In this document: one piece after another, positions 285 through 6,830 of the stretch
Layout of the letters: every line of letters starts with the position of its first letter
How positions within the stretch are numbered: the stretch's first letter is position 1
NCBI GenBank assembly: GCA_046497275.1
Contig: JAWOFX010000066.1
Location: 1-7,134, forward strand
From: Promethearchaeia archaeon
GTDB lineage: Archaea; Asgardarchaeota; Lokiarchaeia; Sigyniarchaeales; SOKP01
Length of the DNA stretch: 7,134 nucleotides
Reading direction: 5' to 3'
The notes under the pieces: generated by a model
The model's database searches: none
Told to the model about the DNA's origin: nothing
Seen by the model: the letters and a program-made list of their open reading frames with translations, nothing else
Translations under genes and position numbers: made by a program

Positions 285-935
285 TTAAAACGTTTCGAGC
301 ACCCAATCTTCAAATTTCATTTTCCGTAATTCTTCCGCAAACAATAACTTAAGATTTTCTTCGTCAGGCAATAAATTTTCCTTTTTTAATAATTCGTATA
401 GCTTTTCAATCGCTCTATCAATTAGAATTTGATATAATGTTTTCCCGTCTTTATTGAGTTCAGAAAATTCATTATTAACTCGTTCTTTAGTAGTTTTAAT
501 AATTTCAACCCAATAATTGGCGAAGATCTCAACATATTTTTCTAAATCGTTAATTTTATCAACATCAAGGACGGGAAAGGTTACGATGTATTTCCCATCT
601 TCTTTCTTTAATAAATTATACCATTCCAGATTAAGCAAATGATTTTCGACCACTTCCTCACTCCATTGATAACCAACGGATGGAGAATATTCTTGCTTAT
701 TGATTACAATCGGATTAGGTGAGAATCGTATGAGCTCAACAACTTGCTCGAATGTTTTTGGTCCTTCCCCGGCTAATATTATCAAGATTTGTCGTCTAAC
801 TTTATTTTCTAAAGGCCAAGGTACTACCGACTCATCCCATGGTTTTCCTCTGTCAAAATCGAACCAAGGTTCTATTAAGGAAATGTGTTCTTCTCCAACA
901 AATCGATATTTATTATATTTTGATTCTTCTTTCAA
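285..935 (-). CDS. Winged helix-turn-helix (ArsR/HTH_20-like) domain protein with helical C-terminal domain
   Basis: 216 aa. PLENKVRRQILIILAGEGPKTFEQVVE…SEEVVENHLLNLEWYNLLKKEDGKY fits the ArsR-like wHTH pattern. TTG start with a strong SD (GGAGGTG) 8 nt upstream, and 2 nt after the upstream stop. The CDS is secure; the function is tentative. Confidence 0.75.
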   Translation of the reverse strand: MKEESKYNKYRFVGEEHISLIEPWFDFDRGKPWDESVVPWPLENKVRRQILIILAGEGPKTFEQVVELIRFSPNPIVINKQEYSPSVGYQWSEEVVENHLLNLEWYNLLKKEDGKYIVTFPVLDVDKINDLEKYVEIFANYWVEIIKTTKERVNNEFSELNKDGKTLYQILIDRAIEKLYELLKKENLLPDEENLKLLFAEELRKMKFEDWVLETF

Positions 936-937
936 AT

Positions 938-1456
938 TTATAACACCTCCAATATAGCATCAATATCAAGCCATCCCTTTTTAGCATGAATTATCTTTCC
1001 ATTGGTATCAATAACAAATTGTCCCGGACCTTGTTGTTCCCATCCCTCATACTCACCATGTTCAATGTTTTGCTCTTTACATTCCTTTAATTTATTTTTT
1101 AACTGTGATATCGATTCAGGGGTCATCATCCCAAGTCCATATTCTTTATAAAGTTCATCTTTAGAACTCGGGATGACGGGGAAATCAATTCCTTTTTTAG
1201 ATATATATACTTCAGCTACATCTTCTCCGGATTGTGTAATGTATAGTATTTTTGCTCCCTTATCTAATATTTCATTCTTGCGTTCTAAGAGAGTGTTCAA
1301 ATCTAAATGACAAATAGGACATCCAAAATATCTCGAAAATATTAAAACTACTTTCTGATTCTCAAACTCCTCCTCCAGAGCAATTTTACCAGCATTGTAT
1401 GATTCAAGAGTAAATAATGGTGCATTCTCTCCAATTTTAATTTCCATTTCACTCAT
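938..1456 (-). CDS. Thioredoxin-fold AhpC/TSA redoxin, peroxiredoxin-like 2 (PRXL2/SelU/AAED1-type) with CxxC
   Basis: 172 aa. Motifs IGENAPLFTL, FSRYFGCPIC (CxxC), FPVIPS and QQGPGQFVID…IIHA. A GTGAT SD-like element lies at 1462-1466. Confidence 0.85.
   Translation of the reverse strand: MSEMEIKIGENAPLFTLESYNAGKIALEEEFENQKVVLIFSRYFGCPICHLDLNTLLERKNEILDKGAKILYITQSGEDVAEVYISKKGIDFPVIPSSKDELYKEYGLGMMTPESISQLKNKLKECKEQNIEHGEYEGWEQQGPGQFVIDTNGKIIHAKKGWLDIDAILEVL
944..950 (-). promoter_or_regulatory. Shine-Dalgarno GGAGGTG for the wHTH gene, embedded in the last codons (LEVL) of the redoxin gene
   Basis: Perfect complement of the 16S anti-SD (CACCUCC) seen in this window at 6951-6960. Spacing to TTG is 8 nt. 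Confidence 0.75.
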
Positions 1457-1497
1457 TTTTAATCACGTTTATTATATTATTAAATTATTTTTTGGAT

Positions 1498-2460
1498 TTA
1501 TTTTTCTCCGAGCATTGCTTCTATTAATATTTGGGTGGCTTCCTCTTCAGTTAATCCCTTTGATTGTAATTCATCCAACCATTTTTGAGGAAATCTTCCT
1601 AAAGAAGCTTCATGAGATACAGTTGAAGTAGGATCAATCGCTCGTATGAATGGACGTGCTCTACATATTGATCCTTTCCCAAGTACAATCTCATTACATT
1701 CAACGTGACCATTGCATCGGGGCGCATTCCCTTCGGTTATACCATACATTAATACTTCCCCTCCATCTTTTGCCGCAGCTTTCATCTTAATGACACTTCT
1801 GGCGTTTCGCCCTTCTAAGAATACAGAATCTCGAATTCTTATTGAATCTCCTCTGTTTTTCCCAAAAGCCTTAACATTTGAGCGTATTACACTATTTTCC
1901 ATTGCATAGATATCAAGCAATATTTTTACTCTTCCCGGGGTTCCTTGAGTCAGATTGAAAGTATTTTCGTAAATACTGTCTTTTCCAATATACATATAAC
2001 TTACAGGAGCAACTAACGCTCCACTTTTTTCTCCATGATAATGAGTCTCATTATATGTAAATTTACAATTATTTCCTACGTAGATATGTCCAAACATTTT
2101 ATGAACCAATCCATCAGCATTTGGGAAACTACAATGTGCTTGAATAGTCACTTCTGAGTTATCCTCCGCAATAATCCGAGGAAATATTCTTTGTATTCCG
2201 GTTTGTTGTTTTACTCCAAAACAGAGATGGACTGGATCTTTAATAACAACTCCCTCCTTTATTATTACATCAGCAATGATCCCATCTGCGATTTCTTTGC
2301 CTTTTATGATTACTCCTTCAATTTCTTCTATGCCTTTTATGGAATTAAAATCAAGTAGCATTTTTGCTCCTTTTCCATGGCCCGGAATAAAGTCATTTAT
2401 ATCAATATTATATCCTTCAAGACTTTGGAGAATCTCTTCTGGGTATTCTGTTTTACTCAT
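1498..2460 (-). CDS. sufB: SufBD-family Fe-S cluster assembly scaffold (SUF-like minimal system SmsB)
   Basis: 320 aa beta-helix-type sequence with PVHLCFG, AHCSFP, ETHYHG, GHVEC and SHEASLG motifs. Its short length and position directly after the SufC-type ATPase (ATGA overlap) are typical of SMS. Confidence 0.92.
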   Translation of the reverse strand: MSKTEYPEEILQSLEGYNIDINDFIPGHGKGAKMLLDFNSIKGIEEIEGVIIKGKEIADGIIADVIIKEGVVIKDPVHLCFGVKQQTGIQRIFPRIIAEDNSEVTIQAHCSFPNADGLVHKMFGHIYVGNNCKFTYNETHYHGEKSGALVAPVSYMYIGKDSIYENTFNLTQGTPGRVKILLDIYAMENSVIRSNVKAFGKNRGDSIRIRDSVFLEGRNARSVIKMKAAAKDGGEVLMYGITEGNAPRCNGHVECNEIVLGKGSICRARPFIRAIDPTSTVSHEASLGRFPQKWLDELQSKGLTEEEATQILIEAMLGEK

Positions 2461-3254
2461 TTTGATTGTTCCTCCTGAAAAATTTTGTCAATATAATCCT
2501 CGCCGAAACACGCATTCTCTTCTACAAAAAGGGTTCTTTTACAATATTCCTTCAATCCTGCGCGGGCACAATATCGTAACATTACTTCTGGAAATGTGTC
2601 GGTTATAATATCATCTCCTGCCCAAAGTAATGTGGCATAATCCGCGATCATTCCAATATCTTCTCGATGCGTAATTAGAAGTATAGTCATATCGAGATTT
2701 CTTATTTTATTAAAAATATTCAAGAAGTCTTCAATTACTATTAAATCCAGCCCTGCTGTGGGTTCGTCGAGGATGATCAATCTCGGCCTCATGGCAATAG
2801 TGGCAGCTAATTCTATTCGCTTTCGTTCTCCTCCACTTAATGACTCGTCAACAAAACGATCAAGATATTTTTCCGGTTTCATATTAACTGTCTTAAGCGC
2901 TTCTATTGCTTGTTCTTTAATGTTGGTCTTATCCTTCATGCCTAAAGATAAATATTTTAAAACAGATAAACCATCTATTCTTGCGGGTTCTTGCCATGCT
3001 AAAGTAATTCCAAGCTTAGCTCTCTCTGTTACGTCAAGATCAGTTATATCTCGTCCATCAAAAAAAATTTTGCCCTTGCTTATCTTATAGGTAGATAATC
3101 CCATAATTGAATAAGCTAATGTGGATTTACCCGAACCATTTGGTCCAATCACTGCGTGAATTGACTTTTCTTTCACTCCAAATGAAACATCATTTACAAT
3201 CACACATTTTTGGTCAAATGTTGGAATTGTTACATTCTTGAGTTCTAGTAGCAT
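2457..3254 (-). CDS. sufC: SufC-type ABC ATPase (SmsC) with Cys-containing C-terminal extension
   Basis: 265 aa. Walker A GPNGSGKST, Q-loop AWQEP, signature LSGGE, Walker B ILDEP and H-switch ITH. Translationally coupled to sufBD, with no permease gene adjacent. Confidence 0.92.
   Translation of the reverse strand: MLLELKNVTIPTFDQKCVIVNDVSFGVKEKSIHAVIGPNGSGKSTLAYSIMGLSTYKISKGKIFFDGRDITDLDVTERAKLGITLAWQEPARIDGLSVLKYLSLGMKDKTNIKEQAIEALKTVNMKPEKYLDRFVDESLSGGERKRIELAATIAMRPRLIILDEPTAGLDLIVIEDFLNIFNKIRNLDMTILLITHREDIGMIADYATLLWAGDDIITDTFPEVMLRYCARAGLKEYCKRTLFVEENACFGEDYIDKIFQEEQSK
2471..2476 (-). promoter_or_regulatory. Shine-Dalgarno AGGAGG for smsB, embedded in the smsC C-terminal codons (QEE)
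   Basis: The minus strand reads CAGGAGGAACAATCAAAATG, complementary to the anti-SD. Confidence 0.65.
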
Positions 3255-3530
3255 CTTTCTACTATTGTTTTTATTTTATTATTAAAGTATGGCTTGTATA
3301 ATATTTAATATTTATTTTAATAAAAACTAAAAAAATAGGATAATCTCACTTTAGATTTAGAGTGTTATTCCAATTATTTATGTAATATATAAGGATGGAT
3401 AAGAAATATTTTGAAAAATCATACCTTACGCCAGAGAATCTAAAATCTATAAATCCAATTTTTATAATCTTAATTTTTTATATTAAAATAGTAGAATTCA
3501 TTAAAATTTAAAATCTAATGGTAAAAAGAA
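3255..3530. promoter_or_regulatory. Divergent promoter region (sms operon / PAC2 array) with an imperfect inverted repeat at 3338-3371
   Basis: 276-bp AT-rich spacer between divergent starts. TATA-like TTTAATAATA on the minus strand about 23-32 nt before the smsC ATG. Palindrome CACTTTAGATTTAGAGTG at 3347-3364 (14/18 self-complementary). Confidence 0.5.
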
Positions 3531-4319
3531 ATGAAATCGAAAAAATATGTGAATAGCGGCGAGAAAAGTTTTATTGTGATTGAAGAGGAGGATGTGGAGA
3601 TCAAAGAAAATCCAACATTGATGTTTGGATTTGCTGGAGTAGGATTATTAGGACCCATAATTGCTAATGAAATGATAGAACAAATTCAAGATATCAAAGA
3701 AATTGGATATGTTGCATCAGATATGCTACCACCTATCGCCACCTTCCATCATGGAGAGCTTATGCATCCGTTTAGAATTTATTACACACAAAAATACAAT
3801 ATAATTTTGGGAATTTCTGAAGTTCCTTTTCAAATATCTTCAGCGTATAATGACCTTGCGAAAACTTTATGTAACTGGTCCCAATCTGAAGAAATTAAGG
3901 CAAAGGAAATTATTACATTCCAAGGTATTCCGAAAAAAGGGATGATTGACGAATTTCCAGTATATTATGCTGCTCAAGAAAATTCTTCAAGAAGGCTAGA
4001 TCAACTTAATATTGAGAAGGTTGATAAAGGAATCATAACGGGAGCTGAAGCGACTTTAGTAAATATAGCACTTACAAGTAAGTTAGAACCCATAGTGCTT
4101 TTCACACCAGTGTATCAAATTGCTACTCCTGAAGGGGCAGCGAGTATAATTGAGAAACTGAATCAAATCTATGGCATGAACATTGAAACTAAGGAATTAA
4201 TTGAAAAAGGTAAGGAAATCAAGGAAAAAATGCAAGATTTAGCAAATAAAGCAAGGCAATATAGACAAAAACAGTTAGCTGGTTCTCAGCAAGAAGGCCC
4301 TTATGAATTATACAGATAA
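3531..4319 (+). CDS. PAC2-family proteasome assembly chaperone/activator (PbaA/B-like), paralog 1; HbYX tail LYR
   Basis: 262 aa. GFAGVGLLGPII (PAC2 GxPGxGxVG-like), HPFRIY, SEVPF, TPEGAA, a C-terminal helix and an HbYX end. Confidence 0.88.
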   Translation: MKSKKYVNSGEKSFIVIEEEDVEIKENPTLMFGFAGVGLLGPIIANEMIEQIQDIKEIGYVASDMLPPIATFHHGELMHPFRIYYTQKYNIILGISEVPFQISSAYNDLAKTLCNWSQSEEIKAKEIITFQGIPKKGMIDEFPVYYAAQENSSRRLDQLNIEKVDKGIITGAEATLVNIALTSKLEPIVLFTPVYQIATPEGAASIIEKLNQIYGMNIETKELIEKGKEIKEKMQDLANKARQYRQKQLAGSQQEGPYELYR

Positions 4320-4342
4320 AATAATTTTTCTATAATTTTTTT
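4317..4342 (+). terminator. Oligo-T terminator candidate after PAC2 paralog 1
   Basis: TAAAATAATTTTTCTATAATTTTTTT immediately follows the stop. TTTTTCTATAA recurs after paralog 3. Confidence 0.45.
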
Positions 4343-4417
4343 AAAGCTGATGATTAGATTATGAAAAATACATTTAAATTTCATAGATCTAATTTTTAAA
4401 TTGGATTAAGTTTTTTC

Positions 4418-4439
4418 AAACATAGATGCAGTATAAAAT
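4418..4439 (+). promoter_or_regulatory. Putative promoter of PAC2 paralog 2: AAACATAGA motif plus TATA-like TATAAAAT
   Basis: AAACATAGA starts at -42 from the ATG and TATAAAAT at -28. The same arrangement occurs upstream of paralog 3. Confidence 0.45.
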
Positions 4440-4459
4440 ATAAAATCAAGGTAATTTTT

Positions 4460-5257
4460 ATGAAAAATATCAAAAAAGAATACGTATGCCCCCCTGGTAA
4501 GAATAGTAAAGTAGTTATCGAGGATGTCAGAGATAAAATAAAGGAAGGCGCTACTTTAGTTCTTGGTTTTGCAGGAGTTGGCTTAATAGGACCAATAATA
4601 GGAAACACTTTAATCGAGCAAATAGATGATTTAAAAGAGATTGGATTCGTAGCTTCTGATATGCTTCCCCCTATTTCAACATTTTATGACGGGAAATTGA
4701 AACATCCGTTTAGATTATATTACTCTCCAAAATATAATCTTATTTTAGGAATTTCTGAGGTTCCTTTTCAAATATCCTCAGCATATAATGATTTAGCTAA
4801 AACTATCTGTAATTGGGCGCTTTCAGAAGATGTGAAAGCAAAAGAAATTGTAGTCTTCCAAGGAATTCCTCAAAAAGGGATGATAGAAGACTTTCCTGTA
4901 TACTATGCTTCAGAGGACGCTCAAATCAAACAATTTGAAGATGATGGAGTAGAAAAAGTTGAAAAAGGTATTATTGTAGGTCCTGAAGCAACTATCATAA
5001 ATGAAGCATTAACAAACAAACTCAACCCATTAGCATTATTTACACCTGTTTACCAGATTCCAACACCTGAAGGTGCTGCCTCAATTATTGAAGTTTTGAA
5101 TAAACGATATAATCTAGATATTGATACTTCCCCATTATTGGAGGAAGGAAAAGAAATAAAAGAAAAAATGTTAGAACTTGCAGAAAAAGCACAACAATAT
5201 CAAAAAAAGCAACTATCAGAATCTAAAGAAGGCGGATATACTCAATATTATCAATAA
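4460..5257 (+). CDS. PAC2-family proteasome assembly chaperone/activator, paralog 2; HbYX tail YYQ
   Basis: 265 aa. GFAGVGLIGPII, HPFRLY and PTPEGAA motifs. About 66% identical to paralog 1 and about 71% to paralog 3 (hand count over 247 columns). Tandem TAA TAA stop. Confidence 0.9.
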   Translation: MKNIKKEYVCPPGKNSKVVIEDVRDKIKEGATLVLGFAGVGLIGPIIGNTLIEQIDDLKEIGFVASDMLPPISTFYDGKLKHPFRLYYSPKYNLILGISEVPFQISSAYNDLAKTICNWALSEDVKAKEIVVFQGIPQKGMIEDFPVYYASEDAQIKQFEDDGVEKVEKGIIVGPEATIINEALTNKLNPLALFTPVYQIPTPEGAASIIEVLNKRYNLDIDTSPLLEEGKEIKEKMLELAEKAQQYQKKQLSESKEGGYTQYYQ

Positions 5258-5270
5258 TAAATATATTAAT

Positions 5271-5290
5271 TAAAATAATTCTTTTTTATT
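5271..5290 (+). terminator. Oligo-T terminator candidate after PAC2 paralog 2
   Basis: TAAAATAATTCTTTTTTATT shares TAAAATAATT plus a T-tract with the paralog 1 downstream region. Confidence 0.4.
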
Positions 5291-5364
5291 GTTTAAACTT
5301 CATCCAAATTAATAAATCAAGATTGAGACTAATAAGTGAATTTTTAAAGCTTAATTTAAATATT

Positions 5365-5390
5365 AAACATAGAGAAAAGTTATTATAAAT
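5365..5390 (+). promoter_or_regulatory. Putative promoter of PAC2 paralog 3: AAACATAGA, BRE-like GAAAAG and TATA TTATTATAAAT
   Basis: AAACATAGA starts at -42 from the ATG. A purine-rich BRE-like element directly precedes the TATA at -27. Confidence 0.5.
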
Positions 5391-5406
5391 AAAGATGTGA
5401 ATATTA

Positions 5407-6201
5407 ATGGTTGTAAAAGAATACGTATGTAAGGCTGGGAAAAAGAGTAAAGTGGTTATAGAAGATTTTTCGGTTGAAATTAAGAATGATGCGACTATAA
5501 TTTTAGGATTAGCCGGGATTGGTCTTATAGGCCCAATAATCGCAAATACTATGATTGAACAAATTGAAGATATTAAGGAAATTGGGTTTGTAACAAGTGA
5601 ATATCTCCCTCCTATCTCTGTATTTTATTCTGGTCAGCTAAAACATCCGTTTAGGATATACTACTCTTTAAAGTACAATTTAATAATTGCTATTTGCGAA
5701 GTACCATTTGAAATTCCATCCGCATATAATGATTTAGCAAAAACAATAAATAACTGGGCTTTAAATGAAGATGTGCAGGCAAAACAAGTAGTGGTGTTTC
5801 AAGGAGTCCCTCAAAGAGGCATGATCGAGGAGTTTCCAGTATATTATGCCGCAGAAGAAGAACTAATGGAGTTTCTTGAAGAAAAAGGCGCAAAAATGTT
5901 TGAAAAAGGAATCATCATAGGACCAGAATCAACGATTTTAAATGAAGCATTGACGAATAAATTACAGGGATATGCATTATTTACTCCAGTTTATCAGATT
6001 CCTACTCCAGAAGGAGCAGCGTCTGTGATACAGTTATTAAATAAAATTTATAAAATGGATATTGACACTACTAAGTTGTTAGAAGAAGGCAAAGAAATCA
6101 AGGAAAAAATGTTGGATCTTGCTGAAAAAGCTCAGGAATTTCAGAGAAAACAGATAGCTGGAGAAGAATCTGCAGATTCTTATACCCAATATTATCGCTA
6201 A
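5407..6201 (+). CDS. PAC2-family proteasome assembly chaperone/activator, paralog 3; HbYX tail YYR
   Basis: 264 aa. GLAGIGLIGPII, HPFRIY and PTPEGAA motifs. About 59% identical to paralog 1 (hand count). Confidence 0.9.
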   Translation: MVVKEYVCKAGKKSKVVIEDFSVEIKNDATIILGLAGIGLIGPIIANTMIEQIEDIKEIGFVTSEYLPPISVFYSGQLKHPFRIYYSLKYNLIIAICEVPFEIPSAYNDLAKTINNWALNEDVQAKQVVVFQGVPQRGMIEEFPVYYAAEEELMEFLEEKGAKMFEKGIIIGPESTILNEALTNKLQGYALFTPVYQIPTPEGAASVIQLLNKIYKMDIDTTKLLEEGKEIKEKMLDLAEKAQEFQRKQIAGEESADSYTQYYR

Positions 6202-6225
6202 TATAATTATTTTCTTTTTCTATAA
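6202..6225 (+). terminator. Oligo-T terminator candidate after PAC2 paralog 3
   Basis: ATATAATTATTTTCTTTTTCTATAA directly follows the stop. Confidence 0.45.
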
Positions 6226-6374
6226 ATATTAAAAATAACAGACTTCTTCAGAAGATCGCATTTTAAAGGTTCTTTTATGAACATCATTACATAACTAACT
6301 CAATATTTTATAAAAATGAATTATTTATGGAATGTGCCTTTTTTGAAATCAGTATTTGGAAAATAATATTATGG

Positions 6375-6830
6375 TTGATTACTATCAAAGAAAAATTTAT
6401 TCCAGTCCAAATAGATCAAGAGTTATGTATGAAATGTGAGCGATGTGTTAACGCATGTCGTCAAGAAGCGATATATTTTGAAGATGGTATAAGATTAGTT
6501 GATTATTTTAAATGCAAAGGATGCTTGGCTTGTGTTCAGGTTTGTCCAAGGAATGCTATCGAAGTAACTTCAGTCACAAGTGAGAAAGTACTTACTATAA
6601 AAATTGAACATGAAAAATGTAATATGTGTTTGAGATGTATTAATGAAGATGGTACTTTTTGCCCAAATGATTTGTATTATCTTGGTAAAGTAAAGGATAA
6701 AGATGGAAAAGAAATAGATGGAATCCGATTCAAATTTTCTGAAGTTGATAAATGTCAAGGTTGCTTAAAATGCGAATTATCTTGCCCTCAAGATGCTATA
6801 AAAATTGTAAAATTTGAAAATCAGCCATAA
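6375..6830 (+). CDS. Polyferredoxin with four [4Fe-4S]-binding motifs
   Basis: 16 Cys in CMKCERCVNAC, CKGCLACVQVCP, CNMCLRC-x7-CP and CQGCLKCELSCP. The start is uncertain: the track's ATG at 6327 adds a non-homologous-looking 16 aa, so in-frame TTG 6375 is preferred. Confidence 0.85.
   Translation: MITIKEKFIPVQIDQELCMKCERCVNACRQEAIYFEDGIRLVDYFKCKGCLACVQVCPRNAIEVTSVTSEKVLTIKIEHEKCNMCLRCINEDGTFCPNDLYYLGKVKDKDGKEIDGIRFKFSEVDKCQGCLKCELSCPQDAIKIVKFENQP

Follow-up and report, generated by a model that had tools for sequence, protein, structure and literature searches.

Introduction

PbaB of Pyrococcus furiosus (3VR0), a homotetrameric member of the PAC2 family, caps and activates the 20S proteasome through its C-terminal tail in an ATP-independent manner (PMC3605417). 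For the related protein PbaA, no binding of the mature 20S proteasome was found in Pyrococcus (PMC3605417), and binding of precursors in Methanococcus is cited in the same paper. In euryarchaea PbaA occurs with a co-transcribed PF0014-type partner (PMC6992696). Eukaryotes possess PAC1-PAC2 (PSMG1-PSMG2; Pba1-Pba2 in yeast), a heterodimer with docking tails of the hydrophobic-tyrosine-X (HbYX) type. Here, we describe a tandem array of three PAC2 genes, termed X, Y and Z, which carry tails of the same type. They are located on contig JAWOFX010000066.1 (working code C67) of a metagenome-assembled genome (MAG) from the Lokiarchaeial lineage; the complete contig of 7134 bp is the stretch of DNA that was analysed and is called the window below. 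The triplet is a genuine, modest and previously undescribed expansion of a known family.

Results and Discussion

The open reading frames (ORFs) of X, Y and Z are located on one strand (+) and contain no internal stops (coordinates in Table 1). Their products match the PAC2 model PF09754 over model positions 1-215 with 91-100 bits and E values of 1e-25 to 2e-28, the gathering cut-off of this model being 25.8 bits. In all three copies the PbaA-type model TIGR00161 gives 128-131 bits (X 128, Z 131) versus 31-49 bits for the PbaB-type model TIGR00162 (X 37). When Y was compared by sequence with solved structures, Ta1441 of Thermoplasma acidophilum (3gaa, E 3e-37) and PbaA of P. furiosus (3wz2, E 2e-24) were the best two, and a family profile built from alignment A2 reached the same proteins with E values of 5e-61 and 1e-40, respectively. 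An AlphaFold2 model of Y (predicted local distance difference test, pLDDT, 86.3) gave a corresponding picture. Foldseek ranked Ta1441 and PbaA first, followed by PbaB and by actinobacterial PAC2 proteins together with human PAC2, each with a probability of 1.00, and PAC1 and yeast Pba1/2 were weaker matches. We place X, Y and Z as paralogues in the PbaA/Ta1441 branch of the PAC2 family and not in the PbaB type, although the TIGR00161 scores stay below the equivalog cut-off of 199 bits.

Within this branch, PbaA (3WZ2, 5Y9N) and Ta1441 (3GAA) match the model of Y with Foldseek E values of 1e-17 to 3e-21 and a target-normalised TM-score of up to 0.84. X, Y and Z resemble both proteins in length, in the long C-terminal helix and in the HbYX-type tail. 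The sequences are, however, only 28-32% identical, and three tandem paralogues take the place of one gene. PbaB shares the PAC2 fold (TM-score 0.74-0.81) and the HbYX tail with the triplet at an identity of 17-19%. Since the triplet is nearer to PbaA than to PbaB, the activator function of PbaB should not be ascribed to it.

Amino-acid identity among the three copies amounts to 63-64% between X and Y, 57-58% between X and Z, and 70% between Y and Z. The C-termini read ELYR in X, QYYQ in Y and QYYR in Z, and the last three residues follow the pattern hydrophobic-[Y/F]-X in 84 of the 84 PbaA-type relatives examined. Inside each orthogroup the tails are conserved, and between orthogroups they differ. 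Tails of the HbYX type are common in the PAC2 family although not universal. An earlier note on this DNA had claimed three intact full-length PAC2 paralogues of 262, 265 and 264 amino acids, each with a hydrophobic-Tyr-X tail; this is borne out by the ORFs and the PF09754 matches as well as by the directly read tails LYR, YYQ and YYR. Its estimate of about 59-71% identity is close to the measured 57-70%, and the Asgard host it had assumed agrees with the best homologues, which come from Lokiarchaeota/Promethearchaeota MAGs.

The history of the array was deduced from two trees, a careful one with 44 sequences and a quick one with 84, both calculated without eukaryotic sequences. The trees agree in placing X, Y and Z in three separate clades, each of which also contains orthologues of further genomes and of other genera. 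The clades of X and Y are sisters, and the single-copy genes (tail YFQ) form a further clade. Members of the X orthogroup, whose stem measures 0.35-0.42, were found in G001, G002, G003, G009, L140 and L141. The Y orthogroup contains 13 sequences and the Z orthogroup 12, mostly adjoining Y in other genomes. Forcing the three copies of the window into one clade was rejected by the approximately unbiased (AU) test with a delta lnL of 271 and a p-AU of 1e-106. Synonymous sites are saturated (pS 0.66-0.87) at a pN of 0.07-0.28, and dN/dS amounts to 0.03-0.13 where dS could be computed.

The separate cross-genus orthogroups, the rejected single clade and the saturated pS combined with a low pN therefore reveal two old duplications with long retention. 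The single PbaA-type gene that lies between the SufCBD/peroxiredoxin cluster and a ferredoxin gene in this Lokiarchaeial family underwent two successive tandem duplications in situ, the first separating Z from the ancestor of X and Y and the second separating X from Y. Both are older than the split of several genera, and all copies have been retained under strong purifying selection. A recent lineage-specific triplication was considered and is rejected by the AU test and the saturated synonymous sites. Gene conversion between the copies is likewise rejected because the longest identical nucleotide run shared by copies of the window comprises only 17-18 nt.

An artefact of assembly or binning, through collapsed strain variants or a foreign contig, might be suspected from the short 7.1-kb contig, the fragmentation of the MAG (3.85 Mb in 188 contigs) and its estimated contamination of 4.4% at 98.9% completeness. 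However, the gene order SufC<-X,Y,Z->Fer4 is repeated on the NCBI MAG contig L140, where the proteins are 96-99% identical, and on the JGI metagenome contig L141, where copy Y is 86% identical to that of the window. Because the same order occurs in these two independent assemblies, the array is not a misassembly. Nor are the copies collapsed strain variants, because they are just 57-70% identical and share no identical run of more than 18 nt. In relatives, tandem pairs were found on contigs of up to 326 kb. The G+C content of the contig (32%) fits that of the genome (30%), and between the flanking genes and their counterparts in a same-genus MAG the identity amounts to 72-89%. An artefact was rejected on the recurrence of the triplet on L140 and L141, and its probability is practically negligible.

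The closest proteins and loci all belong to Lokiarchaeota/Promethearchaeota MAGs. Homologues of the cultured Promethearchaeum syntrophicum MK-D1 and Lokiarchaeum ossiferum are only 39-41% identical, and both are placed in the outgroup of the trees. The host is a member of an uncultured Lokiarchaeial family, for which we use the code f1.

Related genomes contain different subsets of the array. In G001, X and Y are adjacent and Z is located elsewhere. G005 has Y and Z side by side and, on another contig, a divergent third copy of the PbaA type (tail LYQ); in the 84-sequence tree this copy sits on a long branch within the single-copy clade and outside X. Y and Z are almost always kept together and adjacent. 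The variation from one to three copies at the locus among related species, together with the one group-specific substitution each in Y and Z, would suit redundant dosage copies or duplicates heading for loss, without any division of labour. Such an interpretation conflicts with the dN/dS of 0.03-0.13 in each orthogroup despite saturated synonymous sites, with the retention of three orthogroups across genera and with the 14 fixed changes of X, which include the tail. In addition, neither frameshifts nor internal stops were found among the tandem-array copies examined. Pure redundancy is unlikely, as is an assembly artefact, and we assign the redundant-copy explanation only a very low probability.

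Two observations on dispersed or separated copies are reported here for completeness. L043 (G005:C61) and L131 each represent a divergent, dispersed PbaA-type paralogue outside the conserved locus, with the tails LYQ and YFQ, respectively, and long branches. In L031 (G014:C12), PbaA-type copies are about 3.7 kb apart with a 1016-amino-acid ORF on the opposite strand between them, as if an insertion had split a former tandem pair.

The three copies did not diverge to the same extent. Relative to the other clades, X carries 14 group-specific fixed substitutions, whereas Y and Z carry one each; Y and Z remained near the ancestral single-copy protein, and X diverged. Six of the 14 changes are located within residues 65-89 (binomial p 0.001), a region of short β strands or a β-hairpin in the AlphaFold2 model of Y. 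At the C-terminus, X ends with PYELYR instead of the conserved YTQY[YF]Q. A β-hairpin determines the oligomeric state of Pba proteins (PMC3605417), and the hairpin at residues 65-89 of X may be the same element. On the basis of these sequence changes, our best reading is that X represents a fast-evolving, presumably neofunctionalised paralogue.

Considering all data, we regard it as probable, though by no means certain, that the products of X, Y and Z form PbaA-like rings, use their tails to dock on the 20S proteasome or on its precursors, and have divided this role among themselves, X having been neofunctionalised. Each gene would then be transcribed from its own duplicated promoter, whose conserved TATA-like box precedes the start codon by about 70 nt, and each protein would assemble into a PbaA-like ring oligomer. 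The invariant hydrophobic-[Tyr/Phe]-X tail would insert into the inter-α-subunit pockets of the 20S proteasome or of its precursors, and the paralogues may have divided or specialised this docking role. A precedent is PbaA of M. maripaludis, whose HbYX tail mediates the binding of propeptide-bearing 20S precursors (Kusmierczyk 2011, as cited in PMC3605417).

Several points weigh against this interpretation. PbaA of P. furiosus, the closest characterised relative, has the tail yet does not bind the mature 20S proteasome (PMC3605417, PMC6992696). The same protein is a closed homopentamer and forms a 10:10 complex with PF0014 (PMC3605417, PMC6992696). The TIGR00161 scores of 128-131 bits are below the NCBI equivalog cut-off of 199. 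Among the sampled relatives, the numbers of α and β genes do not co-vary with the PbaA copy number, and no link to the 20S composition is visible. Finally, TATA-like and oligo-T motifs are frequent in DNA of 30% G+C.

In the host assembly, one α gene (G000:C156:7186-7842) and three β genes of the 20S proteasome were found. Two α genes are present in most sampled genomes of f1 and of the MK-D1 family, and three β genes in most of the 25 order-level relatives sampled. The second α gene of the host is either unassembled or lost. In the α alignment A3, lysine K66 is invariant, and we take it, via Thermoplasma numbering, to be the lysine of the HbYX pocket. The exchange K68A in the α subunit abolishes activation by PbaB (PMC3605417). 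Prediction of a complex of two α copies with Y resulted in a score of 0.02 as compared with a mark of 0.32 to be reached, which, having been obtained without controls, speaks neither for nor against binding. Among the β-type subunits, L006 (G000:C151:7660-8214, - strand) shows a propeptide of about 47 amino acids before the TIGR03634 match, and the remaining two show 9-22 residues before it.

The three proteins, or Y and Z, could also be obligate partners in one mixed PbaA-like ring, which would be an independent archaeal analogue of PAC1-PAC2. This corresponds to the reading of the earlier note, which had suggested hetero-oligomeric or specialised 20S caps. The tails LYR, YYQ and YYR are then predicted to address non-identical pockets of a 20S proteasome with two α paralogues. 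Paralogues that originate from a homomer often still cross-interact. The nearly constant retention of Y and Z as neighbours, the purifying selection on all copies, the tails that differ among orthogroups and are conserved within each, and the set of two α and three β subunits in relatives are all in accordance with such a hetero-oligomer. The clustering of the X changes in the hairpin at residues 65-89 would be as well, provided that this hairpin corresponds to the one tied to the oligomeric state (PMC3605417). On the other hand, PbaA and PbaB of P. furiosus are solely homo-oligomers (PMC3605417), and most f1 species have one copy with the same set of two α and three β subunits. The arrangements vary, as seen in G001 and G005, where the third copy of the latter is a different one. 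Each gene apparently has its own promoter, so there is no operon, and a single α gene was found in the host assembly. We treat an obligate hetero-oligomer as a tentative alternative that is rather doubtful. It is unlikely that the three proteins are joined in a single asymmetric ring of the PbaA type whose tails LY[RQ], YYQ and YY[RQ] read non-equivalent pockets of a heteromeric 20S proteasome.

A role independent of the proteasome was considered as well, in which the rings would serve as end-plates of another assembly, a scaffold or cage, and the tail would be packed on the core of the ring rather than docked on the 20S proteasome. Both PbaA and Ta1441 are closed pentamers; PbaA does not bind the mature 20S proteasome and combines with PF0014 in a tholos-like complex (PMC3605417, PMC6992696). 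Around the array, the genes conserved as neighbours serve Fe-S assembly or encode ferredoxin and are not proteasome genes. In contrast to the situation in euryarchaea, however, the array has no co-transcribed PF0014-like gene and is flanked by SufC and ferredoxin; none was found as a neighbour at the locus itself, here and in relatives. PF0014 is described as euryarchaeal (PMC6992696). In all 84 relatives the tail has an aromatic residue at the penultimate position, for which docking in the pockets of the α ring is the simplest explanation, and binding of precursors by the tail is cited for M. maripaludis PbaA (PMC3605417). A scaffold function is thus a real though improbable alternative, and docking of PbaA-like rings on the 20S proteasome or its precursors remains our preferred reading.

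To place the array in context, PAC2 genes were counted in 201 Asgard genomes of at least 85% completeness. They occur in all 201, mostly with three to four genes per genome and a range of 1-6. The survey includes 52 f1 genomes, of which 33 have three PAC2 genes, ten have four and only the window's genome has five; five were also found in two same-genus MAGs within a 41-genome sample of closer relatives. The usual f1 complement consists of one PbaA-type and two PbaB-type genes. Other Asgard archaea likewise have several PAC2 genes (3-4 typical, up to 6), but these are scattered and not in tandem. In ten PAC2-rich genomes from other Asgard families the copies are dispersed, and no tandem PAC2 array outside f1 was found in these 10 high-count genomes inspected.

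With a PbaA-type profile search, the loci of 66 species representatives were then compared, the window's own record being excluded. The f1 loci among them mostly contain a single gene; there are 12 tandem pairs and no triplets. Tandem pairs are present in about a fifth of f1 species, and the triplet is rare. Both the pairs and the triplet are limited to one subclade within a single family.

In the host genome, two further PAC2 genes are unlinked to the array, giving a total of five. For the gene on contig C34 (L005, tail LYI) the best matches are PbaB (3VR0) and TIGR00162. The gene on C167 (L003, tail YFR) matches TIGR00162 best, with PbaB and PbaA about equally near. The PAC2 set of the genome is composed of three PbaA-type and two PbaB-like genes. 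An ORF of 122 amino acids (L142:1447-1815; G000:C34:27379-27747) was noticed on C34 at a distance of 5.3 kb downstream of the PbaB-like gene. Its matches to PF21758 PAC_bac (E 0.0046, 17 bits, cut-off 27) and to PF16093 PAC4 (E 0.02, 15 bits, cut-off 31) lie below the thresholds, and it is an unproven candidate; PAC4 matches about as weak were obtained in bacterial control genomes.

The relation to the eukaryotic chaperones is more distant and consists of a remotely common fold, docking tails of the HbYX type and the general principle that paralogues with the PAC2 fold may act jointly. Human PAC2 matches the model of Y with a Foldseek E value of 2e-10 and a TM-score of about 0.64-0.68, and PAC1 with a TM-score of about 0.5. 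The A2 profile gave a marginal N-terminal match to human PAC2 (E 0.48) and did not reach PAC1. In the host genome, the PAC1 model PF16094 has no match at E <= 1 and the PAC3 model PF10178 has no match. MK-D1 and Lokiarchaeum ossiferum, like other families, diverge outside the duplication nodes. Since the duplications took place inside one Lokiarchaeial family, the triplet is at most a parallel to PAC1/PAC2 and not an ancestor; as a parallel to PAC1-PAC2 it is possible. For the same reason, the confinement to one Lokiarchaeial family, the array has no direct bearing on the origin of eukaryotes.

These results change part of what the earlier note had proposed. Its baseline of about two unlinked PAC2 homologues does not apply to Asgard archaea with their mostly 3-4 genes (range 1-6 in the 201 genomes). 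The expansion it called lineage-specific is indeed restricted to a lineage; it is not recent in this genome and goes back to two old duplications shared with other genera. The idea that the array prefigures the PAC1/PAC2 split is not supported in view of the nodes within one family, the lack of a PF16094 match, the fold, which is nearest to PbaA and then to PbaB, and the missing co-variation with α and β genes. The number of 20S α paralogues, which it had suggested counting, does not track the PbaA copy number. The PF09754 counts and synteny it had recommended showed that the triplet is not a common feature, being rare next to pairs in about a fifth of f1 species. The note knew of no description of such an array, and no published description was found. 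Our literature search yielded no paper on Asgard PAC2/PbaA paralogues, and the ProEnd paper mentions neither PAC2 nor Asgard.

All copies of the array occupy a conserved site. Beyond the divergent SufC gene, SufBD, a peroxiredoxin and a 216-amino-acid protein without Pfam match follow (window 285-3254 including SufC, - strand). The order [216-aa protein, peroxiredoxin, SufBD, SufC] <-> PbaA-type gene(s) -> poly-ferredoxin is kept across many f1 genera at any PbaA copy number, and extra PbaA copies occupy the same site. The intergenic gaps measure 140 bp between X and Y and 149 bp between Y and Z.

Table 1. Positions of genes, C-terminal tails and putative transcription signals in the window.
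Feature	Position	Strand	Evidence or remark
Copy X, PbaA-type PAC2 gene, 262 aa, tail LYR	3531..4319	+	PF09754 E 1.1e-25
Copy Y, PbaA-type PAC2 gene, 265 aa, tail YYQ	4460..5257	+	PF09754 E 1.9e-28
Copy Z, PbaA-type PAC2 gene, 264 aa, tail YYR	5407..6201	+	PF09754 E 5.9e-28
HbYX-type tail of X, Leu-Tyr-Arg	4308..4316	+	Direct reading; LY[RQ] at the end throughout the X orthogroup
HbYX-type tail of Y, Tyr-Tyr-Gln	5246..5254	+	Direct reading
HbYX-type tail of Z, Tyr-Tyr-Arg	6190..6198	+	Direct reading
SufC-like ABC ATPase, divergent upstream anchor	2457..3254	-	Pfam; same neighbours at single, double and triple PbaA loci across genera
Poly-ferredoxin (4Fe-4S) gene, downstream anchor	6327..6830	+	Pfam; in many relatives it follows the last PbaA copy
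TATA-like box AATTTTTATA, 74 nt upstream of X start	3457..3466	+	Block conserved in L140, L141, G002
TATA-like box AATTTTTAAA, 69 nt upstream of Y start	4391..4400	+	Conserved intergenic block
TATA-like box AATTTTTAAA, 68 nt upstream of Z start	5339..5348	+	Conserved intergenic block
Oligo-T runs T5 + T7 just past X stop, possible archaeal terminator	4325..4342	+	Direct reading, weak
T6 run past Y stop, possible terminator	5282..5287	+	Direct reading, weak
T-rich run TTTTCTTTTT past Z stop, possible terminator	6210..6219	+	Direct reading, weak

On the + strand, the decamer AATTTTTAWA has no more than three occurrences, one upstream of each copy. On both strands of the window, five occurrences were observed versus 0.93 expected. 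The intergenic blocks with the boxes are conserved in L141, the contig with 86% identity, and the block upstream of X also in a same-genus MAG. Together with the possible terminators, these motifs weakly suggest three separate transcription units, whose promoters may have been duplicated along with the genes. A scan for sigma-70 promoters and hairpin terminators was set aside as not applicable to archaea.

During the collection of relatives, some records with conflicting labels were encountered. L120 (DATKTW010000024.1) is a contig with PbaA of Lokiarchaeial type that is filed under a 'Candidatus Nanopelagicaceae bacterium' MAG. L087, L090, L115, L119 and L129 are among the records that fall inside the Lokiarchaeial single-copy clade despite Odin-, Hod- or Hermodarchaeota labels. 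L120 and these records of the single-copy clade are probably mis-binned contigs or mislabelled records.

Conclusion

The survey provides a better baseline for this family: Asgard genomes usually contain 3-4 PAC2 genes (range 1-6), and Lokiarchaeales 2 α and 3 β subunits of the 20S proteasome. The three diverged PbaA paralogues under selection are natural variants for probing the purpose of ring and tail. X, with its rebuilt tail and the cluster of changes in the β-hairpin region, is a useful variant in this respect. Furthermore, the lineage could show whether homo-oligomers of the PAC2 fold drift to hetero-oligomers, as needed en route to PAC1-PAC2. If the mixed ring proved to be true, it would represent an independent archaeal invention of a hetero-oligomeric α-ring chaperone and a functional parallel to PAC1-PAC2.

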